A stretch of DNA of 64,000 nt, taken from IMG/VR virus record IMGVR_UViG_3300028887_000098. One strand, given 5' to 3'. Positions 11,421-57,468 of the stretch are shown piece after piece. Position 1 is the first letter of the stretch. Every line of letters starts with the position of its first letter. Origin of the DNA: a virus. Taxonomy: Duplodnaviria; Heunggongvirae; Uroviricota; Caudoviricetes. The translations under genes and the position numbers were made by a program. The notes under the pieces are model-generated. The model searched no databases, was not told the DNA's origin, and saw nothing but the letters and a program-made list of their open reading frames with translations.

Positions 11421-11999
11421 TTAGTTTGAATTATTTTCATCAAAGAACAACGTTTTTAAAATTTGAAGTTCTTTTTTAAATTTCTTCAAGCAATCTTCAA
11501 CAGTTTTGTCAAAATCGCGTAAATGTCCGCTTATTTGTCTTGCAAGTCTACCAGCACTTCCGGCTCTTGTTGGTGGATAGTTATTAGTTTCGAATCCTTT
11601 TATAAAGTCACTTTCGGTTTTTTGTTCATCATCAATAGTCTTATCGAAGAATTTTGAATACATTGTCCAACATGAATCTTCAAATGTCTCAATAGATTCT
11701 CTTAATTCATATCCTTCGCGAAGTCTACGTTTCTTTTTCTTTCTCTTTTTCTTTGGAATTTGATTTAACCAATAGCCTGGATGATGAGCAGCAGGAACAC
11801 CATTATAAAGTGGATTTGTTTTAAACGGAGAACGTTGATATAATAATCCCATACGTTGTGGACAACAACCTTTACAATCACCGCCATGTGGAATACCTTG
11901 GTCAGCACCAAGTGGTCCACCTACACCAATTCCGAAATCTTCGTCTAAAACTTTATAACCGTTTTCTTTAAGTACTTCTATTGCTTCATCTAAAGTCAT
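11421..11999 (-). CDS. putative packaged internal-protein-like protein; N-terminal targeting motif followed by a copy of the capsid protein maturation-site region
   Basis: N-terminus MTLDEAIEVLKENGYKVLDE|DFGIGVGGPLGADQGIPHGGDCKG is close to MCP residues ~52-78 (LLTE|DFTQGVGAPLGLDQGIPHGGDAKG). A KKKRKKKKRR basic patch follows. Confidence 0.5.
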   Translation of the reverse strand: MTLDEAIEVLKENGYKVLDEDFGIGVGGPLGADQGIPHGGDCKGCCPQRMGLLYQRSPFKTNPLYNGVPAAHHPGYWLNQIPKKKRKKKKRRLREGYELRESIETFEDSCWTMYSKFFDKTIDDEQKTESDFIKGFETNNYPPTRAGSAGRLARQISGHLRDFDKTVEDCLKKFKKELQILKTLFFDENNSN

Positions 12000-29428: not shown

Positions 29429-30748
29429 ATGAAGATTACAAAGACACAAGCCGGTATGATGGAACGCTGGGGCAAGGCTCCAGGCGGACTTTCAGTCGCT
29501 GGCATTAAGGACAATCTTGTCCGTTATAATACTGCACGTCTTTTGGAAAACCAGCAGACTAAGAACCTCGGTTCTGAACTCTTGACTGAAGATTTTACTC
29601 AGGGCGTAGGTGCTCCACTTGGTCTTGACCAGGGTATTCCACACGGTGGTGACGCAAAGGGTGTTTTCGCACCGATTTCTTTGGCACTTGTCCGTCGTGT
29701 TTTCCCACAGCTTTTCGCTAACGTCCTCGTTGGTGTTCAGCCATTGACTGGTCCTGTCGGTCTTGCTTTCGCACTCCGTTACATTTATAAGACCAATAAC
29801 CCGAACGAACTCGTTGAAGCCGCATGGAAGGCAGTTCCTCGCTTCTCTGGTTATACCGGTTCTACCGCTAACACAGATGGCGAATGGGATGCTGGTACTG
29901 GTGTTGATACTCAGTCTGCTGAAGGCTGGAAGATCACTGGTCCGACCTTCGGTTCTGATGACCCGTCTGTAAGCCGTAAGATGCCAGAACTTGGTCTTAT
30001 GCTCAGCCGTCAGTCTATCGTTGCTAAGACCCGTAAGCTCGCTGCTAGCTTCTCTCTCGAATCTGCAGCTGATATCAAGGCTATGCAGGGTATCGAAATG
30101 ATGACTGAAATGATCAACGTTCTCCAGCAGGAAATGACTGCAGAAATGGACCGTGAAACAATCGGCCGCTGCAAGAGCCTCTGTACTCCACGTGTTTACA
30201 ACAAGGCTGATCAGACCCTCGCTAACAACGATTCCTTCATTGGTACAAACTCTCAGGAACGTTTCGGTCTCATTATCACTCACATCATGAAGGGTGTTAA
30301 CGACATTCGTACCGCTACTCGTCGTGGTGCTGCTAACATCGCAGTCGTCTCCCCAGACGTTGCTACTGTTCTTCAGGTTGCTAACCCATGGTTCACCAAG
30401 GTTGCTCATGAAGTTAACGGTTCTGCAGTTACTCCGGAAATGGGTACATTGAACGGTGTTGTTAAGGTCTTCTGTGACCAGTATGCTGTTGACGAATTCG
30501 GCGCAAACGACAACGGTGAAGTTCTCTTAGCATTCAAGGGCTCTAGCCTCTATGATGCTGGTGTTATCTTCTGCCCATACGTTACCGGTGTTGTCAACCA
30601 GGCAATCGATCCTAACGACTTCTCTCCAAGAGTCGGTATCATGAGCCGTTATGGTTTCGCACACAACATGCTTGGTGCTGAAAACTATTATCGCTTGCTC
30701 AAGTTCAACGGACTCTTCCAGGATGCTCCAGAAGCTCTCGTTTGGTAA
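29429..30748 (+). CDS. major capsid protein (T4 gp23-like)
   Basis: ISLALVRRVFPQLFANVLVGVQPLTGPVGLAFALRYIY aligns with T4 gp23 VMGMVRRAIPNLIAFDICGVQPMNSPTGQVFALRAVY. An L-T-E|D site upstream is positioned like the gp23 propeptide cleavage site. Strong SD (AGGAG). Confidence 0.9.
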   Translation: MKITKTQAGMMERWGKAPGGLSVAGIKDNLVRYNTARLLENQQTKNLGSELLTEDFTQGVGAPLGLDQGIPHGGDAKGVFAPISLALVRRVFPQLFANVLVGVQPLTGPVGLAFALRYIYKTNNPNELVEAAWKAVPRFSGYTGSTANTDGEWDAGTGVDTQSAEGWKITGPTFGSDDPSVSRKMPELGLMLSRQSIVAKTRKLAASFSLESAADIKAMQGIEMMTEMINVLQQEMTAEMDRETIGRCKSLCTPRVYNKADQTLANNDSFIGTNSQERFGLIITHIMKGVNDIRTATRRGAANIAVVSPDVATVLQVANPWFTKVAHEVNGSAVTPEMGTLNGVVKVFCDQYAVDEFGANDNGEVLLAFKGSSLYDAGVIFCPYVTGVVNQAIDPNDFSPRVGIMSRYGFAHNMLGAENYYRLLKFNGLFQDAPEALVW

Positions 30749-32347: not shown

Positions 32348-33208
32348 TTAGCGACGACCACGACCGACACCTCTGTTTCTATTATAAGCAGATTGTCTTG
32401 TACCAGCAGCAGAGTCCATATTTTCACCAGCTAACATAGCGTTTGTAATTTTATACAATGCGTCAGTTGGGCTATTAGCTTGGCGAAGTCTTGTTGCAAA
32501 AGTATTATAATACTTATCACCGATACCTTTACCAACTGCGGTTTTTACATCAGCCAATACTTTTTCGATTGCACCTTGAAGACCTAGTTGTGCAACAATA
32601 GCAAAGAATTTGCCACCAGAAACATATTCTTGACAAATACTTGTGAATGTAGTTCCTTCTGTGTCACCGAAATCTTCATTCAACTTACCGTCTTTCTTCT
32701 TTGCCCAGAAAGGAACAAATTCAGACTTCTTGCCTTTCTTCTTACCTTTCTTTTTCTTGCTACCAGCACCGCAGCAACCTTCATCTAAGTCACTGAAATC
32801 AAGATCATTTGCTGAAATTCTTTCACCAGTATCAGTATTTTCAACATAAGCAAGCTTATAATATGTTCCGTTACCAGTGTCACAAGAACCAAGTTGAATA
32901 ATATCGTCAGCAACATCAGTTCCGAATTCATTAGCCATTTCTTCAAAAGTGTAGCTTACTGTTTCGTTTGGTTCTTGGTTATCGAAGTCAGGAAAATCAT
33001 TATCTGGATTATAATAAATATCGACGCCGTAAACACGATTATCATCTACATCTTCATTAATGATTTGATAACCAGCACGTTTTGCTACACGCTTTGCTTC
33101 TTCAAGTTCTTCACGTGCAACACGCTCGCGGAATGATTCGCCTTCAATATTTTTAGCGATACGATAGCCTCGCTCTTCTACAATTTTTTTAGCTTCCAAG
33201 AATGTCAT
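32348..33208 (-). CDS. putative packaged internal protein (targeting-motif family member, poly-Lys patch)
   Basis: N-terminus MTFLEAKKIVEERGYRI, with a second copy LEEAKRVAKRAGYQI. Also has CCGAGSKKKKGKKKGKK and a C-terminal RNRGVGRGRR. Confidence 0.45.
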   Translation of the reverse strand: MTFLEAKKIVEERGYRIAKNIEGESFRERVAREELEEAKRVAKRAGYQIINEDVDDNRVYGVDIYYNPDNDFPDFDNQEPNETVSYTFEEMANEFGTDVADDIIQLGSCDTGNGTYYKLAYVENTDTGERISANDLDFSDLDEGCCGAGSKKKKGKKKGKKSEFVPFWAKKKDGKLNEDFGDTEGTTFTSICQEYVSGGKFFAIVAQLGLQGAIEKVLADVKTAVGKGIGDKYYNTFATRLRQANSPTDALYKITNAMLAGENMDSAAGTRQSAYNRNRGVGRGRR

Positions 33209-33314: not shown

Positions 33315-33980
33315 ATGGAAGCTAAAAAGTTATTAAATGAAGCAGCTATTGCCGAATCAAAGATTCTTAATGAAGAAACAAACGGCGTAAAGCACATGTA
33401 TATTTCTGGTCCTTTCCTTCAGGCAGTAGATACTAACAGAAATGGTCGTATTTATTCTAGGGAAATTATTGAAAGAGAAGTTAACAAGTTCCAGAGTCTT
33501 ATTGAGTCTCGTGAAGCCGTTGGTGAACTTTCTCACCCAGAATCAATCGAAATTAACCCAGACCGTGCAGCAATCTTGATTACTGAATTGAAGATGGATG
33601 GTAATCTCGCAATCGGTAAGGCTAAGGTTCTTACTACTCCATGTGGAAAGATTCTCGAATCCCTTTTGAATGACGGTGTTCGTATGGGTGTTTCTTCAAG
33701 AGGAACTGGTAACTTGACTGAAGGTAATATGGTTGCAGACGACTATTCTCTTGCTACAATCGATGCAGTTTACATGCCTTCCGCACAGGTCGCATATGCA
33801 GATGCAATGTATGAATCTGTCCAATATGCTTCTAAGTGGGTTCTTAACGAAGCAACTGGTCTCTATATTGAAAAGAGAGAAAAAGTTGACGAAGCTACTA
33901 AGGCATTCAATAAGAAGGTTGACGATATTGGTTCTAAGATTATCGTTGAAGCTTTCAAGGATTGGTTAAAGTCAATCTAA
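33315..33980 (+). CDS. prohead core protease (T4 gp21-like, S78/U9 family)
   Basis: GELSHPES and GVSSRGTG match the His- and Ser-containing active-site blocks of the gp21 family. Size (221 aa) and position next to the capsid genes are consistent. Confidence 0.7.
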   Translation: MEAKKLLNEAAIAESKILNEETNGVKHMYISGPFLQAVDTNRNGRIYSREIIEREVNKFQSLIESREAVGELSHPESIEINPDRAAILITELKMDGNLAIGKAKVLTTPCGKILESLLNDGVRMGVSSRGTGNLTEGNMVADDYSLATIDAVYMPSAQVAYADAMYESVQYASKWVLNEATGLYIEKREKVDEATKAFNKKVDDIGSKIIVEAFKDWLKSI

Positions 33981-33999
33981 AATAAATTTACATAAAATA

Positions 34000-34030
34000 A
34001 AAATAGAGGTTTTAATAACCTCTATTTTTT
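34000..34030. terminator. bidirectional terminator
   Basis: AAAATAGAGGTT-ttaat-AACCTCTATTTTTT. Confidence 0.6.
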
Positions 34031-35096
34031 ATATCGAAGCTTTTTCACAGAATACGTTATGGTCCCAATATTGAACTGCATTTGCAAACCATTCAACTTG
34101 TTCCATAGAAATTGGTGTATATCTATGATAGTCTGTTGCTAAGTCAAATCCATTTTTCTTAGCAAATGCTCTTCCATGAATATGACCATAAAGAACAATG
34201 CTATCTGGATAACGTGGATGAACCTTACCTTCATCTGGTTCATGAATAACATGATAAGTTTTCTTATTATGTTCAAATGTTGCCTTAGAAACTACATCAA
34301 TATGTCTATCCTTTAGTTCAGAAACTATCTTATTAATCTCTGTTTCTAACTTCCTATCGTAATTACCCATGACCCAAACGAGCTGCTTATAATTCAAATC
34401 AGATAAGATGTTTTTCATTGTAGATAAATCACCGAAATCGCCAGCATGATAAACTGTATCATTCATTGTAACTGTCTTATTCCAATTACTCATCATTTCC
34501 AAATCCATTTCAAAAAGATTAACAAACGGTCTTCTGGAATAATCTAATGTTCTTTGCTGAGAGAAATGAGTATCAGCAGTGAAGAAAGTATCAGACGGAG
34601 ATTTTTCAAGTTTTTTAACTACATGTTTTAAAAGTTCTTCAAGATTATTCCAATACTTGATTTTCTTCATATCAAGTCTGCATTTAAGATAATCATTCTT
34701 ATCTGCCCAATCTGGAAATCCACAGTAAACACCAGGTTTATCAAACCAATCACCGAATTCAATATTGGTTGTAAATGCTGGAAATTTCTTTTTAGTATCT
34801 CTTGCAACCCAGAAGACAATAGCAGAAGCTTTCTTCATCGCGATATATTCCCAAGTAGTTTGCTGCATTAATGCATCATTACCGTACTTATCACGAAGCT
34901 TTTGGAAATCTGCATTTGTTGGTGTAATAACCTTACCAGTAAAACCTAGTTTTTCAAGTATTTCAAATGCTTCATTTCTCCAATCATCATCATAATTTTC
35001 TCTAGGGCAAGGACCGGCAAGAAAAATAGAATTATTCATATCACCAGATAATTGTTCTTCTGGTTTCATATCAGGATTAGCTTTTATTATATTCAT
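34029..35096 (-). CDS. nucleoside 2-deoxyribosyltransferase-like domain fused to calcineurin-like metallophosphoesterase
   Basis: The N-terminal half has NSIFLAGPCP (NDT-type G-rich loop) and TTNIEFGDWF (catalytic-Glu region). The C-terminal half has ordered MPE motifs: DTHF (DxH), HAGDFGD (GD), MGNYD (GNHD-like) and YGHIHGR (GHxH). Confidence 0.55.
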   Translation of the reverse strand: MNIIKANPDMKPEEQLSGDMNNSIFLAGPCPRENYDDDWRNEAFEILEKLGFTGKVITPTNADFQKLRDKYGNDALMQQTTWEYIAMKKASAIVFWVARDTKKKFPAFTTNIEFGDWFDKPGVYCGFPDWADKNDYLKCRLDMKKIKYWNNLEELLKHVVKKLEKSPSDTFFTADTHFSQQRTLDYSRRPFVNLFEMDLEMMSNWNKTVTMNDTVYHAGDFGDLSTMKNILSDLNYKQLVWVMGNYDRKLETEINKIVSELKDRHIDVVSKATFEHNKKTYHVIHEPDEGKVHPRYPDSIVLYGHIHGRAFAKKNGFDLATDYHRYTPISMEQVEWFANAVQYWDHNVFCEKASI

Positions 35097-35129
35097 ATTA
35101 TCCTTTAATAATTAGTAATACAAATATAG

Positions 35130-35154
35130 AAAAAGACTGTCAAGCGACAGTCTT
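35130..35154 (-). terminator. rho-independent terminator (minus strand) followed by a CTATATTTG motif
   Basis: Reverse complement reads AAGACTGTCGCTTGACAGTCTTTTTCTATATTTG. Confidence 0.55.
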
Positions 35155-35177: not shown

Positions 35178-35723
35178 TTAATATAATGGTCCGCGTCCGC
35201 GTTGTGCATTATTGAAGTTTTGCATAGCTATATCATCGAGAAATTCTTCAGATTCTTCTGGACCGTATGCAAAAGATTCATCGTCATTTTCAATATCGAA
35301 ATCGTCAATATCGTTATAAGATTCATCTGGAATATTGTTCGGGTCATTTGCCCAATCAATATAGCCTTGGAAGTTACAACGTTCACAACCTTCGCCGCCG
35401 CAATCTGGACAGATATTTACTTCTTGATCATCTGCACATCCGAGCGGGTCAGTGCAACATTCGTCACCGTCACATTCATAACCGCATTCTTTCAAGAGAT
35501 AATCTTGGAAGTGTTTAGGGTCAAAGAGTGGATGATGACCAGCATAACGTTTAGATTCCTTTACAAAGCGTAAACCATTTGCATTAACGATTTTCTTTGC
35601 TTCGGCAAGCTTTTCTTCTGGTGACATTTCTTTCTTTTTCGGTTCAGCAACTGGCTTCTTAGTATTTCTTGTAAGATGATAGCCATATTTCTGAACAAGC
35701 TTTACTGCTTCATTAAATTCCAT
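35178..35723 (-). CDS. putative packaged internal protein (targeting-motif family member, Cys-rich)
   Basis: N-terminus MEFNEAVKLVQKYGYHL plus a second copy LAEAKKIVNANGLRF. A Cys-rich cluster CGYECDGDECC ... CPDCGGEGCERC follows, then an acidic tail ending RGRGPLY. Confidence 0.45.
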   Translation of the reverse strand: MEFNEAVKLVQKYGYHLTRNTKKPVAEPKKKEMSPEEKLAEAKKIVNANGLRFVKESKRYAGHHPLFDPKHFQDYLLKECGYECDGDECCTDPLGCADDQEVNICPDCGGEGCERCNFQGYIDWANDPNNIPDESYNDIDDFDIENDDESFAYGPEESEEFLDDIAMQNFNNAQRGRGPLY

Positions 35724-49564: not shown

Positions 49565-49666
49565 GTCCCAATAGTAGTCTTTTATTATTTATAGTTTAGG
49601 GGTTTACATTTATTTTAAAAAATGTTATATTTAAGTCAAACAATTAACAAAAAGGAAAAAACATCT

Positions 49667-50440
49667 ATGAAAAAAATCTATTCAATCTTTATTATGTTGG
49701 CGTTTGCACTCTTTACGGGTTGCACGACAGTTGACGAAACCGAAAGAGCAGTCGTTCTGGAGTTCGGTAAGTATAGCGAAACCTTCGGACCAGGCTTGCA
49801 TTTCTATAACGTTTTCATGAAGAGCACCGTGACGATCCCGGTTAAGACTCAGCTTGAAGCAAGCACATTTGAAGCGGGTTCTAAGGACCTTCAGCAAGTC
49901 AAGGTTTCGACGAACGTTAACTATCACGTAGATCCAGAAGCGGTTGGTAAGGTATATTCAAAGTTCGGTGTAAATTATGTCCAGACTATTTTGCAACCGA
50001 AGATTAAGGAAACTCTTACTTCTATTACACCACAATATGTACCAGAGGAAATGTTACAGAAGAGAGAAGAGATTAATGTCAGAATGGAAAAGGCATTGAA
50101 GGCAAAGCTTGATTCTGCAGATGCACATATTATTATCGATGGTTTTACTGTAACTGGTTTCCAATTTACTTCAGCATTTAATACGGCTATTGAAGAAAAG
50201 CAGGTTGCAGAACAGAAGGCATTGAAGGAAAAGAATGTTCTTAAGCAGATTGAATATCAGAATGAACAGAAGGTCGCAAAGGCAAGAGCTGATTCTACAG
50301 AAATGGCTATTAAGATGGCAACATTGAAGTCCCAGTCTGGTAAGGAGTATTTGCAGCTTAAGTGGATTGAAAAGTGGAATGGTGAGCTTCCGAAATTTGT
50401 TTCAGATGGTAAGTCCATTCCAATGGTAAACATGCAATAA
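49667..50440 (+). CDS. SPFH/band-7 (prohibitin-like) lipoprotein
   Basis: MKKIYSIFIMLAFALFTGC carries a lipobox. The mature protein has a band-7/SPFH-like core followed by a coiled-coil tail. The ATG at 49667 has an AAAGGA SD; the tracked start at 49622 lacks one. Confidence 0.6.
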   Translation: MKKIYSIFIMLAFALFTGCTTVDETERAVVLEFGKYSETFGPGLHFYNVFMKSTVTIPVKTQLEASTFEAGSKDLQQVKVSTNVNYHVDPEAVGKVYSKFGVNYVQTILQPKIKETLTSITPQYVPEEMLQKREEINVRMEKALKAKLDSADAHIIIDGFTVTGFQFTSAFNTAIEEKQVAEQKALKEKNVLKQIEYQNEQKVAKARADSTEMAIKMATLKSQSGKEYLQLKWIEKWNGELPKFVSDGKSIPMVNMQ

Positions 50441-50842: not shown

Positions 50843-51667
50843 TTATAATTGCTTATATTTATCATAAAGATGTCTATATCTTTCCATGATTAAATGGCGA
50901 CCTTTAATATGGTCAAACAATCCGTCACTTCTTTCATGTGCCAGATGAGTTATTTCAATATCGTCAGTAATTTCGATTTTTAATCCTGCAAAGATTGAAT
51001 CAAGACCCATAGCGACGTCTTCATATCCCCAATTTTTAGAAAATGCAGTATCATCAAACAATTTATTTTTAATACCGTAATTTTCTTCCATAAAAAGAAT
51101 ATGTTTTGTTAATCCATATCTGGTTATACCAAAATTACAAGACCAAGTAATCATACCTGTAAGAATCAAGTCAATTTTTTCGCTTATAGACTCTGCAGAA
51201 TGCCAAGCCTTTATAGCACCAGATGTAATTCTTAAGTCATTATAATTTAAAGGTTTTCCTTGCCATAATTCATCCATATTTGCTGTCAATAAATCAGATG
51301 CCGGCATTTTTATGTTATCTACAGGAGTATGTTTTCTGGTTCCATAGATTAAATCATATTTCTTAAATAATTTTCTATATTTCTTTATAAAATTCTTATC
51401 AGATGGCCAGGAGTCACCGTCTATAAAAATTAAAGCTTCAGAATCTGTATTTAAGAATGGAAGAATTACTGAATTTCTATTATTACATCTTCCACTATTT
51501 TCTTTATTATCAATAACTGTTACATTTTTATAAATGTCTAAATCTTTATTTCCATCCATCAATAGATAGATATGTTCAGGCTTCTCAGCCTGTTCATTTA
51601 ATACACAGATAGTCTTTGCTATCTGTTCTGTTTGATTATGACTTGTTATAGCTATACTTATTTTCAT
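50843..51667 (-). CDS. family-2-like glycosyltransferase
   Basis: N-terminus MKISIAITSHNQTEQIAKTICVLNEQ is a GT2-type start. A DxD motif follows in LIFIDGDSW. Confidence 0.55.
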   Translation of the reverse strand: MKISIAITSHNQTEQIAKTICVLNEQAEKPEHIYLLMDGNKDLDIYKNVTVIDNKENSGRCNNRNSVILPFLNTDSEALIFIDGDSWPSDKNFIKKYRKLFKKYDLIYGTRKHTPVDNIKMPASDLLTANMDELWQGKPLNYNDLRITSGAIKAWHSAESISEKIDLILTGMITWSCNFGITRYGLTKHILFMEENYGIKNKLFDDTAFSKNWGYEDVAMGLDSIFAGLKIEITDDIEITHLAHERSDGLFDHIKGRHLIMERYRHLYDKYKQL

Positions 51668-51737: not shown

Positions 51738-54700
51738 TTATTGAATTGACCATGCACTTGCTGTAGCATCCCAATGTAAATTACCAGTTCCTAATGTTGC
51801 AGTAGTTAAGAAGTCAAATAACTTACCGAGCGGAGTGCCAGGATCTGCTTTATAAGTCTTTGCAGAAACTGTACCGTCAGCAGAAACAATCATTGCATTA
51901 GAACGATTTGGATTATCAAAATCATCATCTGAATGAGAACCATTACCAACAATGAATAATGCACCAGATGTAGTAGTTTGACCATCTCTGTCATCAGTTC
52001 CTGGTAATACTTCATTGAATCTACCAACAACAACTTGAGAATTAGTTGCAGAAAGACCTTCACCAATCAATACGCTATTATAACCGCTAACAATATTATG
52101 ATGACCGATTAAGGTAGAATTAGAACCGAATTCAATCTTATTGTGCATACCAATTATTGTATCATTTTCAAATACAATTTCGGAATTATTATTAAGTTCA
52201 TTGTTGTCACCAAGAATATTGCAATCTGCAAACTGATTAGATGCGCTGTTATTGTTACCAATAATCTTGTTTCTATAAAGTTGATCACTATAATCATTAG
52301 GTTCATAAACTGTTTTGTTATTATTACCAATAATTACGTTATCAGTGATAAAGTTATGAACTTTAATGTCATTATGATAACCAAGAATAAAGTTACGTGC
52401 AATAGTATTCGCATGTTTATCATCATTTGGATCAAATTCTACATCACTCATGAAACTATTATAAGAACCAATTATATTAGTATCATAGAGTCCTGGAAGC
52501 ATTCCAGAATATTGTTTATAACTTTCAACATCAGTAACCAATTCATCAACTTCAACTGGTGTAATATATGCAATATTTTCATTACCAAATATTGTAGTTT
52601 TATGACCACCAACAATATTATTTGTTTTACCGAATGAAATTGTTTCAATAGAAGCAGAAATTTCATTATCATCGCCTAAATTAATAATATTATTAGAATT
52701 AGAAATATTTGTATATTCATAATTCATATCGTTAGTAGTACCAGTTAAATTACATTCAGTTGCAAATGAAATAACTCTATTAGAATTTAATATAGAACCA
52801 CCAAATACAAAAGAATTACCAAATGCATATTTATATGGATTTATATGTTCAATATATTCATAATGTTCTTCAGGATATGTAATATGTTTTTCTTCTATGT
52901 AATAATGAGGTAATGTATATACTTTAAATTTATCAGAATCACAAATATATTTTGTATAAAATAAATTATTAGTTGAAACATACGTATTATTATCATAATT
53001 AGTTTTATCATTAACAGGTAAATTAATATCAAAAATACTTTGATAAATATTATTTTCAATAACAACACCATAATAAGATGATGGTATGTTTATATTTAAA
53101 ATATTAGTTGCAGGATCTATTGGAATACTTCTATCATATTTAAAATCATTATGGCTAAATGTCCATGCATTGATATTAAATGTTTTACCAGTTCCACGAT
53201 AATCAATATTATTATTTGTTATATATTGAGATTTTCCACTTATATTTAATGTATTTTCATTATTTTTATAACCAAGTCTAATTTTATTAAAATTAAACAT
53301 AGTATAATTATTCGTTTCAAGATTGATTGTACTACCAGTAATATCATTATAAGTAAAGAATGTTTGACCACTATGGGAAACATTAATATCTGTATAAGTA
53401 GCTTTATTTTCAGTAAAGCAATTTGTAGAAGTACTATATGGCGAAAATTTAATATTAGAATTTTTTAAAATATTATCGGTAACAAAGGTATCAGGAGAAG
53501 ACCAAGAATATGCACCTGGCATAATTAAGGCACTTAATGTAGACCAATATAAAATATTTCTTGAAGTTCTTTCAAATGCTACTCTATTAGTAGTAGGATT
53601 GTTATCTTTTTCATGAATAAAGATTTTAGATTTAGAACCATAAATTAAATTTTCCATACCCATAATACTAGAATTATAACCATTTAATATAGTATTACGA
53701 GTTCCAGCAGCAGAACACCAGTCACCAAATATTAAATTACTACCACCATCAGCAACATTATAAGAACCAATAGTAGTATCAAAATTACGATAAGCTTTAT
53801 TTCCAATACCTATTGCAATAGGATAATTTGGTGTTTTATAACCAGTAGTATCATAATTTGCTATTTCACCAAATCCACCACTTAATGCAGCACTGTTGGC
53901 AACACCAATAATAACCGGACTATATGTTTGAGAAATATTATTATCACCTGCTATAAAACCATGTGGTTCATAAGCTTTTGAAGAAACACTTATTGCTGCA
54001 GCAGCACCAGTTAAAATTGGATTTCCATCACTATCACGTTCTGCAGAAAGAATATAATAATTTTCAAGTGTAGAAGCAACTGCACTATTATTGATACCGA
54101 ATGCAAAATTTGCTTTTACTGTATTACCATCACCAAATGCAAAAGCACAATTTGATGCATAGTTATTTTTACCAATAATTGCACCGCAGTATTGAGCAGA
54201 ACCACCACCTAAAACAATACCACAACCATGTGCTACTGAATATCTATCTTTATTTGTTTCACCTGCATTTATTATTATACCACATGTAGTAGCTGATGCT
54301 TTATTATTATTAGTAGCATTAATAACAACAGCACCATAATCAGCAGAAGCTATATCACCAATTACTATACCATCATGAGATGCATAGTCGCCACCAAAGT
54401 TATAGTTTAAAGACATTGCTAATGCACCATTATATGCTGTTGCATAATCACCTATTACTATACCACCATTAGCATATGAATAGCCACCAAAATCAGCATG
54501 TTTAAGTATTAAAGCGCCTGCTGTTGCTTTGGCATTACCACCAATAACCGTAGAACCACCATTTGCAGATAAATTTCTACCAACAAGAACAGAACCACCA
54601 TCAGCACTCGTAGATTCACCTATTACAAAACTACCACCCTTAGCGATATTACTGTTTTTACTAATTAAAATACTACCATCAGAAGCAGTTGCTGAAGTAT

Positions 54701-55289
54701 TACCAGTAGCTATAGATAAAAGTAATGAACCCTTATCTGCTATTTTTTTACTAGCACTTTCTGATGCTGGTGTACTTATTATTAAAGAACCTTCATTAGC
54801 ACTTGCATTATAACCAATAACAGTAGAACATTTATTAGCAGAAACATCTCTACCAATAACTTTAGAACCTTGTAATGCAGTTACCTGATTACCAATGACA
54901 AAACCATCATTTACGTAGTTATCCATACCAAAGACATAACTACCGCCTCTACTATATGTTGCTGTATTAGTAGTAGCGACAACTCTGTTATTTTCACCAA
55001 CAACATAAGCATGACCACTACCTAATATTTCATTATTAGGACCAAGATATATTGCAGAAGCAATAGCAGGATATTCAGCTGTCGAATTATGATTTTCTGA
55101 CCATTGTTTCCAGCTATCACTATTACCTAAATCATTAAGTAAGCTTAAAATGAAATCATCTCTCTCTTTTAATGGTCCAATAGTATTTTTTTGTAACCAA
55201 ACACCATCGGCAACAGTATTTCTGCTCCATTGTGCAACTTTGAATTGTGCACTTGAATTAAAATCTTCTACACTAGGTATATTTGCCAT
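51738..55289 (-). CDS. tail fibre / receptor-binding protein with YadA-head-like repeat array
   Basis: Residues about 120-420 are around 14-residue repeats of the form xGxxSxAxGxxShVIGxxxxAxxxxSxh (for example GSKVIGRDVSANKCSTVIGYNASANEGSLII). Further NxxGxxN-type repeats follow. Confidence 0.6.
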   Translation of the reverse strand: MANIPSVEDFNSSAQFKVAQWSRNTVADGVWLQKNTIGPLKERDDFILSLLNDLGNSDSWKQWSENHNSTAEYPAIASAIYLGPNNEILGSGHAYVVGENNRVVATTNTATYSRGGSYVFGMDNYVNDGFVIGNQVTALQGSKVIGRDVSANKCSTVIGYNASANEGSLIISTPASESASKKIADKGSLLLSIATGNTSATASDGSILISKNSNIAKGGSFVIGESTSADGGSVLVGRNLSANGGSTVIGGNAKATAGALILKHADFGGYSYANGGIVIGDYATAYNGALAMSLNYNFGGDYASHDGIVIGDIASADYGAVVINATNNNKASATTCGIIINAGETNKDRYSVAHGCGIVLGGGSAQYCGAIIGKNNYASNCAFAFGDGNTVKANFAFGINNSAVASTLENYYILSAERDSDGNPILTGAAAAISVSSKAYEPHGFIAGDNNISQTYSPVIIGVANSAALSGGFGEIANYDTTGYKTPNYPIAIGIGNKAYRNFDTTIGSYNVADGGSNLIFGDWCSAAGTRNTILNGYNSSIMGMENLIYGSKSKIFIHEKDNNPTTNRVAFERTSRNILYWSTLSALIMPGAYSWSSPDTFVTDNILKNSNIKFSPYSTSTNCFTENKATYTDINVSHSGQTFFTYNDITGSTINLETNNYTMFNFNKIRLGYKNNENTLNISGKSQYITNNNIDYRGTGKTFNINAWTFSHNDFKYDRSIPIDPATNILNINIPSSYYGVVIENNIYQSIFDINLPVNDKTNYDNNTYVSTNNLFYTKYICDSDKFKVYTLPHYYIEEKHITYPEEHYEYIEHINPYKYAFGNSFVFGGSILNSNRVISFATECNLTGTTNDMNYEYTNISNSNNIINLGDDNEISASIETISFGKTNNIVGGHKTTIFGNENIAYITPVEVDELVTDVESYKQYSGMLPGLYDTNIIGSYNSFMSDVEFDPNDDKHANTIARNFILGYHNDIKVHNFITDNVIIGNNNKTVYEPNDYSDQLYRNKIIGNNNSASNQFADCNILGDNNELNNNSEIVFENDTIIGMHNKIEFGSNSTLIGHHNIVSGYNSVLIGEGLSATNSQVVVGRFNEVLPGTDDRDGQTTTSGALFIVGNGSHSDDDFDNPNRSNAMIVSADGTVSAKTYKADPGTPLGKLFDFLTTATLGTGNLHWDATASAWSIQ

Positions 55290-56595: not shown

Positions 56596-57468
56596 ATGAA
56601 TTATAATAACCCAAAATTACGAATACTTAATTGTACACATGCGGATATGGACGGTTGCGGTGCTTCAATCGTTTTAAAGAATTTTTATGAACAAGTTATT
56701 GTTGTTCCAGTAACTTATAATACAGAATGGAAACTTCTTGATGAAATTGCACAATATGATGGTAAATTTGATGCAATTATTTGCACAGATTTCTATCCGT
56801 CACAAACAATTAACGATTTAAGAAAAATGTCAACTACATTGGTTCTTGATCATCATGAATCAGTCGTTGATAAAAATAATGATACTGATATTATTATCAA
56901 TACATTATATTCTGGAACTAAGCTTGCTTATAAGTTCATCAGTAAATTTAAAGATATTTCATATCTTGAAAAATTAGTCGATATTATTGATGATTATGAC
57001 ATGTTCAGATTAAAACTTCCAGCAAGTGTATATTTCAATAATCTTTTCTGGGAAATGGGACATAAATGGTTTACAAGACGTTTCATTACTGGAAATACTG
57101 TAATGTACCCAGAAGAAAAGAGATATTTTATCGATGCAAAGAAAGAATTTGATAAAATGTATGAAACACTTGAAATTACAGACTTAGCTAGAAATGGTGT
57201 ATTCTTTGAAACTGACCGGTTCCATTATGAATGTATTGAAGCACTCAAGAAAGATGGTTATAAGTGGTTTGCAATCAAGAATAAAGGTAATATTTCTGTT
57301 AGATGTGATGATATTGATTTAACTGAAATTTTCAAGAAACTTGGTCGTGGAGGTGGACATGCACATGCAGGTGGAGTTCCTCTTACTAAGACAGATAATG
57401 TTGCTGAATGGGTAAGAAAAATCGAGTATTTTATCGATGATTATTATATGAATATGATTGATGACTAG
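56596..57468 (+). CDS. DHH/DHHA1-family phosphoesterase (NrnA/RecJ-core-like)
   Basis: Motif I CTHADMDGCGAS (H-x-D-x-DG), motif III LVLDHHES (DHH) and the DHHA1 signature GRGGGHAHAGG are present in canonical order in a 290-aa protein. Confidence 0.7.
   Translation: MNYNNPKLRILNCTHADMDGCGASIVLKNFYEQVIVVPVTYNTEWKLLDEIAQYDGKFDAIICTDFYPSQTINDLRKMSTTLVLDHHESVVDKNNDTDIIINTLYSGTKLAYKFISKFKDISYLEKLVDIIDDYDMFRLKLPASVYFNNLFWEMGHKWFTRRFITGNTVMYPEEKRYFIDAKKEFDKMYETLEITDLARNGVFFETDRFHYECIEALKKDGYKWFAIKNKGNISVRCDDIDLTEIFKKLGRGGGHAHAGGVPLTKTDNVAEWVRKIEYFIDDYYMNMIDD

Follow-up and report, generated by a model that had tools for sequence, protein, structure and literature searches.

The 64,000-nucleotide stretch analysed here, referred to throughout as the window, belongs to a virus of the class Caudoviricetes (IMG/VR record IMGVR_UViG_3300028887_000098). 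It derives from a distant T4-like phage, whose gp23 is 33% identical to a cyanophage gp23 and which also carries a gp20 portal, a gp22-like scaffold, a gp21 protease, homologues of gp15, gp25 and gp5, UvsW, UvsX and a DnaB-like helicase. On the minus strand, positions 34029..35096 form an open reading frame (ORF) of 355 amino acids plus stop, running from ATG to TAA in the ORF listing. Its N-terminal domain (aa 1-168; 34593..35096, minus strand) resembles nucleoside 2-deoxyribosyltransferases (NDTs) and the nucleotide N-hydrolase DNPH1, and its C-terminal domain (aa 169-355; 34032..34592, minus strand) is a calcineurin-like metallophosphoesterase (MPE). This two-domain protein and the reaction it may catalyse are the subject of the present analysis.

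Domain assignment and active-site residues

Both halves of the protein were recognised by Pfam above the gathering cut-offs. PF15891 (Nuc_deoxyri_tr2, 'nucleoside 2-deoxyribosyltransferase like') matched aa 22-120 (E 1.5e-12, 48.2 bits against a cut-off of 30) and PF12850 (Metallophos_2) matched aa 206-316 (E 1e-8, 35.8 bits against a cut-off of 27), while PHROG 547 ('phosphoesterase') aligned with aa 144-347 over profile positions 5-208 of 245 (E 9.7e-30). On the strength of these matches, a preliminary description that had placed an NDT-like domain fused to a metallophosphoesterase at these exact coordinates, leaving the strand unsaid, proves correct. The YfcE subfamily model (NCBIfam TIGR00040) scored 27.9 bits, below its cut-off of 56.25. 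Pfam gave no match in the window protein to PF05014, the nucleoside 2-deoxyribosyltransferase family proper, and in relative P0172 the same family reached 24.7 bits, under its cut-off of 28.8. Among the PADLOC defence-system models the lone match was an insignificant one to PDC-S10 (E 0.007, 13.6 bits).

An AlphaFold2 (AF2) model built from a 34-sequence alignment was confident (predicted local distance difference test, pLDDT, 88.6; predicted template modelling score, pTM, 0.89). In fold comparisons its N-terminal half matched 4mcj, NDTs and the nucleotide N-hydrolases DNPH1/Rcl and MilB, and its C-terminal half matched aq_1665 (1xm7). The N-domain is thus predicted to have the flavodoxin-like fold of NDTs. 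It is not the generic flavodoxin-like domain lacking the NDT glutamate that the preliminary description had named as the outcome fatal to its proposal: the structure matches are to the NDT family, and a Glu at the nucleophile position is invariant.

Residue conservation was assessed across two sets, 119 full-length homologues and 150 divergent N-domain representatives, about 148 of the latter aligning at each position. Invariant or near-invariant residues are F25-L-A-G-P29, R32, W39-R40, P59, Q79, W82-E83, F95-W96, R99, T109-T110-N111, E113, G115, G126, P128 and Y136. The beta1/loop motif I24-F-L-A-G-P29 (35010..35027, minus strand) and the Glu-containing motif P106-A-F-T-T-N-I-E113-F-G115, to both of which the preliminary description had drawn attention, are invariant across the family. 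The Glu113 codon lies at 34758..34760 and that of Glu83, within W82-E83, at 34848..34850 (both minus strand); these positions are Glu in 147/147 and 148/148 representatives, respectively. The spacing P106-x6-E113-x-G115 is the PxxxxxxExG spacing of PSLGVGYELG, which we take to be the corresponding sequence of DNPH1, and for this reason Glu113 is our candidate for the covalent nucleophile and Glu83 for the second acidic residue of the triad. From motif spacing and fold, Glu113 would be the equivalent of E98 in LlNDT, E104 in DNPH1 and E103 in DmtZ (the NDT-superfamily half of the phage enzyme DmtZ-DutZ, discussed in the last section). Glu83 appears to occupy the triad Asp/Asn position (D72 in LlNDT, D80 in DNPH1, N77 in DmtZ) in the helix before beta3, as Glu and not Asp. 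Three arginines (R32, R40 and R99), each shared by at least 145 of the approximately 148 aligned representatives, could bind phosphate.

MPE-superfamily members are defined by five motifs, DxH, GD, GNH(D/E), H and GHxH, which together contribute seven metal ligands. In the C-terminal domain, motif I is D175-T-H177 (34566..34574, codons read), motif II is G219-D220 (34437..34442), motif IV is H285 (34242..34244) and motif V is G304-H305-I-H307 (34176..34187), all on the minus strand and all invariant. All seven ligands (D175, H177, D220, N245, H285, H305 and H307) are present and invariant. The preliminary description had listed the complete set of MPE motifs in order; the order holds, but motif III (34356..34367, minus strand, codons read) is G244-N245-Y246-D247, with Tyr for the canonical His, and not GNH(D/E). 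Tyr is found at this position in 61/64 fusions, and among 45 standalone phage MPEs the residue is His in 25 and Tyr in 15.

Recurrent fusion partners and proposed reaction

A search of 1.84 billion representative proteins with the N-domain profile yielded 1412 clusters. Among the best 150 of these, the domain is standalone in 60, joined to the MPE described here in 33 and joined to a divergent NUDIX domain of about 230 aa at its C-terminal side in 42. The NUDIX partner has a degenerate Nudix box, and Pfam NUDIX scored above cut-off in only 1/4 members tested; nevertheless, nearly all matches of its profile in the PDB are Nudix hydrolases. Some NDT-like plus NUDIX members lie on contigs of cellular appearance, and a 412-aa 'Nudix hydrolase' of Klosneuvirus also matches the AF2 model. 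One glycosidase-like domain has therefore acquired, on independent occasions, partners of two unrelated nucleotide phosphohydrolase folds, MPE and NUDIX. Conservation of E83 and E113 (100%) and of R32, R40 and R99 is independent of the fusion partner, a pattern that would fit a catalytic domain with a phosphorylated substrate.

A member of the NUDIX class occurs in Bacillus phage G, whose gp334 (396 aa) has an N-domain 40.6% identical over aa 13-138 (tblastn) and, as partner, a NUDIX domain rather than an MPE. The gene (L106:5956-7146) is labelled just 'NUDIX hydrolase', yet has an unannotated NDT-like N-terminal domain. It sits between the pieces of a split DnaE-like polymerase gene and a homing endonuclease.

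We lean towards the view that the ORF encodes a bifunctional nucleotide-degrading phage enzyme that would dephosphorylate and then deglycosylate its substrate, irreversibly removing one nucleotide class from the pool. In the first step, the C-terminal MPE, presumably binuclear and of the COG4186/aq_1665 type, would hydrolyse a nucleotide phosphoanhydride or phosphoester (in an NTP, dNTP or NDP-X, for example) to give a nucleoside 5'-monophosphate. In the second, the NDT/DNPH1-like N-domain would cut the N-glycosidic bond of that monophosphate. Glu113 would attack as the nucleophile to give a covalent (deoxy)ribosyl-5-phosphate intermediate, with help from Glu83, while R32, R40 and R99 would hold the phosphate. 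The products would be a free base and (deoxy)ribose-5-phosphate, although transfer of the sugar-phosphate to another base may also be possible. This order of steps is the likely one because Nudix enzymes, like the dUTPase analogues, yield nucleoside monophosphates (NMPs) and not nucleosides. The net effect would be an irreversible editing or sanitising of the pool in the infected cell, the purpose of which may be to exclude an unwanted or modified nucleotide or to remove one sensed by host immunity. The general idea of a bifunctional nucleotide-pool enzyme had already been put forward in the preliminary description, and it gains strength from the separate fusion of the same N-domain to NUDIX and from the experimental precedent of DmtZ-DutZ (PMC12884076).

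Several points weigh against this proposal. At the sequence level, the N-domain profile gave zero matches in the PDB at E up to 10, and hhalign of this profile with human DNPH1 returned a probability of 0.15, which is no match; consequently, the residue equivalences given above rest on fold matches and motif spacing. Position 25, which by shared pattern with the L-Y-F-C-G of DNPH1 probably occupies the catalytic-Tyr position (Y7 in LlNDT, Y24 in DNPH1, Y6 in DmtZ), is Phe in 144/148 representatives and Tyr in 3. The absence of the catalytic Tyr is a real departure from the NDT superfamily, and in DmtZ the change of Tyr6 to Ala abolishes activity (PMC12884076). In the MPE, motif III is without its His, at a non-ligand position (Tyr246). 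No base-modification genes were found in the scanned window proteins (all but about 18 small ORFs) or in flanks of about 20 kb, out of a genome of about 170-190 kb. Gene neighbourhoods were compared by clustering 2673 ORFs from 88 loci and by jackhmmer with ten seed families, counting occurrences within 10 kb in 20 fusion lineages. No neighbour is conserved across the lineages, no partner being present in more than 4/20, and the substrate therefore cannot be deduced from context. Finally, no enzymology of any PF15891 member or COG4186 MPE was found in the literature.

The replacement of the catalytic Tyr by Phe25 would also suit an N-domain that is a non-catalytic nucleotide-binding sensor regulating the phosphoesterase, in the manner of SLOG or TIR-type sensor domains, as would the attachment of the N-domain to unrelated domains, SocA_Panacea and DUF6829 among them. 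We consider a sensor of this kind very improbable, since 60 of the best 150 representatives are standalone, both residues at the acidic catalytic positions are 100% conserved and the equivalent domain in DmtZ-DutZ is an enzyme (PMC12884076).

The monophosphate products of Nudix enzymes bear on a further alternative, a role in salvage or rebalancing. Here the MPE would be a 5'-nucleotidase making deoxynucleosides from host-derived deoxynucleoside monophosphates (dNMPs), and the NDT domain a true transferase exchanging the bases on deoxyribose to suit a genome of 32% G+C, the value found for the window. MPE-superfamily 5'-nucleotidases exist, UshA being an example. One report also describes phage NDTs that are proposed to shift the pool (bioRxiv 10.1101/2025.10.22.683976). 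Even so, we think such a role quite unlikely: the alternative NUDIX partner yields monophosphates and not nucleosides, and the three near-invariant arginines of the N-domain suggest a phosphate-bearing substrate. In canonical NDTs, moreover, the free C-terminal carboxylate of the neighbouring subunit sits in the active site and helps bind the 5'-OH, whereas the C-terminus of the NDT-like domain runs on into the MPE and is not free. Re-use of the product would in addition call for a deoxynucleoside kinase, of which the neighbourhood showed no sign.

It is also conceivable that the protein acts on nucleic acid, with the N-domain as a base-excising glycosylase and the MPE as a nuclease or 3'-end phosphoesterase, serving to break down or process DNA or RNA that is damaged or comes from the host. 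In a mycobacteriophage, an MPE damages the DNA of the host (PMC12287305), and the fold matches of the C-domain include the MPE domains of DNA-polymerase small subunits. However, the structures nearest to the C-domain, those of aq_1665, MJ0936, YfcE and LpxH, are phosphodiesterases of a small, single-domain kind that lack DNA-binding capping domains; the protein itself has no domain for binding DNA, and the recurring NUDIX partner points to small pyrophosphate substrates. To our knowledge, no NDT-fold member is a DNA glycosylase. Taken together, we would be surprised if nucleic acid were the substrate.

Distribution and gene neighbourhood

The identical protein was found on 13 metagenomic contigs, with synteny kept. 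A homologue search returned 301 matching proteins, at least 120 of them full-length with both Pfam domains (49-87% identity), and every listed homologue carries a precomputed PF15891 match. A single 90%-identity cluster contains 405 member sequences. The full-length relatives come from gut and rumen phages, both T4-like and jumbo, and a scan of viral contigs yielded 540 relatives, with fusions in phage contigs of up to 424 kb. By comparison, representative genomes of 185,579 species gave 8 loci, all on contigs of ruminant-gut metagenome-assembled genomes (MAGs) and of inconsistent taxonomy. We conclude from the 540 viral-contig relatives, as against these 8 loci, that this is a viral family under selection. 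Copies 90% identical to the gene are present on JAFQXD010000042.1 (191 kb) and JAFRFB010000097.1 (173 kb), both deposited in goat-gut Methanobrevibacter MAGs, and further MAG copies are binned as Rickettsiales, Clostridia, Prevotella, Fibrobacter and Bacilli; the MAG contigs with the gene are most likely mis-binned phage genomes.

In deposited phage records, tblastn with the whole protein found matches to the C-terminal half alone (475 records, among them Herelleviridae, jumbo phages, AR9 and PhiW-14), none covering at least 80% of the protein and none carrying the fusion. At the DNA level, the 20 kb surrounding the gene gave no match among deposited phages.

Both in the window phage and in its near relatives, the gene is located between the gp21 protease gene (33315-33980 in the window) and a DUF5856 gene; gp23 (29429-30748) is also near. 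The ORF is on the opposite strand from the head genes and is preceded by an AAAGGA ribosome-binding site (35101-35106, minus strand), 4 nt upstream of the ATG. Terminator-like hairpins, which are pattern matches only, were found on both sides by a consensus scan. One (35133..35154, minus strand), seen also by inspection of the sequence, lies between the ORF and the upstream gene at 35178-35723. The other (33999..34029, minus strand) has a 13-bp stem, begins at the last base of the stop codon and separates the ORF from the convergent gp21 protease gene. Sigma-70-like sites numbered 21, against 23.1 ± 5.6 in shuffled sequence; there is no excess, and hence we make no promoter claim. The preliminary description had seen the gene as embedded in the late/head block. 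It does lie among head genes, though on the opposite strand and with the hairpins on either side, and this location is particular to the lineage. In jumbo phages, the gene occurs amid small early-type ORFs and nucleotide-metabolism genes.

About half of the fusion lineages have at least one nucleotide or NAD metabolism gene within 10 kb. Individual families are sparse: dCMP deaminase, a standalone NUDIX gene, GMP reductase or IMP dehydrogenase (IMPDH), YqeY and nicotinate phosphoribosyltransferase (NAPRTase) were each found in 2/20 fusion lineages and ThyX in 1/20, while two families of other MPEs, a and b, occur in 4/20 each.

The NAPRTase and NUDIX neighbours raise the possibility of a NAD+/ADP-ribose-centred function. 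The MPE would then serve as a pyrophosphatase for ADP-ribose or NAD, comparable to ADPRibase-Mn or MisA, and the NDT-like domain as a nucleosidase or base exchanger acting on the resulting AMP, nicotinamide mononucleotide (NMN) or nicotinate mononucleotide (NaMN), the pair feeding or complementing phage NAD+ salvage under NAD-depleting immunity. On one phage contig of 310 kb, the last 4 bases of a PncB-type NAPRTase gene are shared with the fusion gene, and an isochorismatase gene is located 7 kb upstream; three MPE-only lineages likewise have NAPRTase within 10 kb. In addition, the top PDB matches of the NUDIX partner are ADP-ribose/ADP-sugar pyrophosphatases (E 7e-4 to 3e-3), and the calcineurin-type MPE MisA splits NAD+ into NMN and AMP (bioRxiv 10.1101/2025.11.05.686725). 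On the other side, the NAPRTase link is a minority one that may be no more than background, and jumbo phages cluster all nucleotide genes; the window phage and its near relatives have no NAD gene close to the fusion; and the similarity of NUDIX to ADP-ribose pyrophosphatases is marginal. The closest characterised structural relatives of the N-domain, furthermore, use (d)NMPs or deoxynucleosides and not pyridine nucleotides. On these grounds we regard a NAD-centred function as unlikely. Linkage to NAPRTase, striking in one jumbo phage, was considered as the basis for the principal interpretation and, being found in only 2/20 fusion lineages, was kept as an alternative to the pool-degrading enzyme that we favour.

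A standalone homologue of the N-domain (43% identical) is found among ThyA, DUF5662, DHFR and SHMT genes. The DUF5662 gene (L060:3203-3802) begins one base after that NDT-like gene, and H...HD-like motifs were noted in it by eye; its product may be another phosphohydrolase partner.

Other genes of the window phage also concern nucleotides. An NT5C-like 5'-deoxynucleotidase gene lies just left of the window start (L101:888-1364; 25.9 bits against a cut-off of 24.8), and the name of its Pfam family matches the activity of T5 Dmp. A 250-aa protein of the dimeric-dUTPase family is encoded about 2.5 kb right of the window end (L099:13943-14695; 29.3 bits against 22.9). Thus, several nucleotide-degrading enzymes are present in this phage. 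A DHH/DHHA1 phosphoesterase (NrnA/RecJ-like; 56596-57468, plus strand), of a small-molecule/oligonucleotide phosphoesterase type, is encoded directly upstream of the UvsW helicase gene. TnpB/IS605 OrfB-type genes adjoin the fusion gene in several lineages of jumbo phages (L005/L006 9873-13687, L019 12809-14137, L066 6399-7598), and on one jumbo-phage contig two such copies lie on either side of a second metallophosphoesterase gene.

Three small proteins of the window without a Pfam match (35178-35723, 32348-33208 and 11421-11999, all minus strand) have a common N-terminal module, M-x-(F/L)-x-EA-x-x-(I/L)-(V/L)-x-x-x-GY-x-(I/L/V), which is present twice in the 286-aa protein. Two of the three genes flank the head genes and the fusion ORF, and the proteins may be internal components of the head that carry a leader for capsid targeting. 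The terminase large-subunit gene (46972-47892, plus strand) encodes the T4-type ATPase half (PF03237) only and ends with ...QQEYACLTGDHKITV...GFLR*. This end resembles a first intein block (CLTGDHKI) right before the stop, and the following genes are on the other strand; the terminase gene may be split or intein-interrupted. Two family-2 glycosyltransferase genes (47884-48777 and 50843-51667, both minus strand) and an SPFH/Band-7 gene (49622-50440, plus strand) adjoin a fibre-like gene of 1183 aa (51738-55289, minus strand).

Comparison with known systems

Phage infections hinge on nucleotide chemistry, including dNTP/dNMP depletion, NAD+ reconstitution, signal destruction and base replacement, and the present family is abundant in gut and rumen phages without a characterised member in either half. 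The identity of the substrate would show which nucleotide these phages must shed and could reveal a new DNA modification, immune signal or counter-defence; the family may also offer new N-glycosidase or phosphoribosyl-transferase activities for nucleotide biocatalysis. Interest would be high if the substrate were an immune signal or if the enzyme marked a new DNA modification. Both domain families have catalogue entries, and precomputed Pfam tables already show the architecture. In the searchable literature, we found no description of the NDT-like plus MPE architecture, no characterised member of either subfamily and no functional study of PF15891/Nuc_deoxyri_tr2, COG4186, YtoQ or fusions of NDT with metallophosphoesterase or Nudix domains.

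A functional analogue for a counter-defence role is the 5'-deoxyribonucleotidase Dmp of phage T5, which depletes dNMPs and so blocks the host immune pathway Kongming (bioRxiv 10.1101/2024.12.20.629578); its fold is unrelated, and it removes phosphate, not the base. Recent work has also found that hosts sense m6dAMP released in genome degradation. The fusion protein might similarly be a counter-defence enzyme that erases a nucleotide that host immunity senses or builds on, or it might be a marker of phages with an unrecognised replacement of a DNA base; neither is what we would expect. Candidate targets would be dNMPs from degradation of the host genome (m6dAMP for Metis and PUA-Cal-HAD; dAMP, the dITP precursor, for Kongming) or a signal derived from ADP-ribose. 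With the phosphate linkage cut and the base then removed, such a signal could not be regenerated.

For the pool-degrading enzyme that we favour, DNPH1/Rcl, a 2'-deoxynucleoside 5'-phosphate N-hydrolase and pool sanitiser, serves as the functional model. The N-domain resembles it in the Glu at the nucleophile position of PxxxxxxExG and in the acidic residue of the preceding helix. It differs in sequence (about 15% identity), in having Phe for Tyr, in its fusion to an MPE and in that the phosphate-binding Ser of DNPH1 is not evidently conserved, three conserved Arg being found instead. BDI_0649 of Parabacteroides distasonis (4mcj), a standalone structural-genomics protein of about 150 aa, is 15-17% identical and was not found by the N-domain sequence profile. 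The best match of the C-terminal half, in both sequence and structure, is aq_1665 (1xm7)/COG4186/PHROG 547, and matches in BFVD are annotated as COG4186 or phosphoesterase; motif III is GNHD in aq_1665 and GNY(D/E) in the fusions.

The closest parallel to the whole protein is DmtZ-DutZ of Arthrobacter phage Wayne, in which the C-domain, of dUTPase fold, converts dATP to dAMP and the NDT-like N-domain converts dAMP to adenine (PMC12884076). DmtZ transfers the deoxyribose 5-phosphate to 2-aminoadenine (the Z base); its E103A and Y6A mutants are dead and N77D is impaired, and in Gordonia phage Ghobes DmtZ and DutZ are separate proteins (PMC12884076). Both systems place an NDT-superfamily domain N-terminal to a nucleotide phosphohydrolase, so that domain order and the proposed two-step logic agree. 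They differ in the partner (dUTPase fold there, MPE here), in the catalytic Tyr6 that DmtZ retains where this family has Phe25, and in genomic setting. DmtZ-DutZ is tied to PurZ0 Z-genome actinobacterial phages, whereas no PurZ/adenylosuccinate-synthetase-like or modification gene was seen in the annotated neighbourhoods here. No actinophage record was listed when the phage collection was searched by tblastn with the N-domain, the membership of Wayne and Ghobes in that collection being unchecked. With DmtZ-DutZ published, the general kind of enzyme, an NDT-like N-hydrolase joined to a nucleotide phosphohydrolase, is already known; the present protein is set apart by another NDT subfamily with Phe for Tyr, a different phosphohydrolase fold, other phage groups and no link to Z-genomes. 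The MPE and NUDIX partners of the present N-domain, together with the dUTPase-fold partner of DmtZ, suggest a general nucleotide-disposal module that may have evolved convergently.

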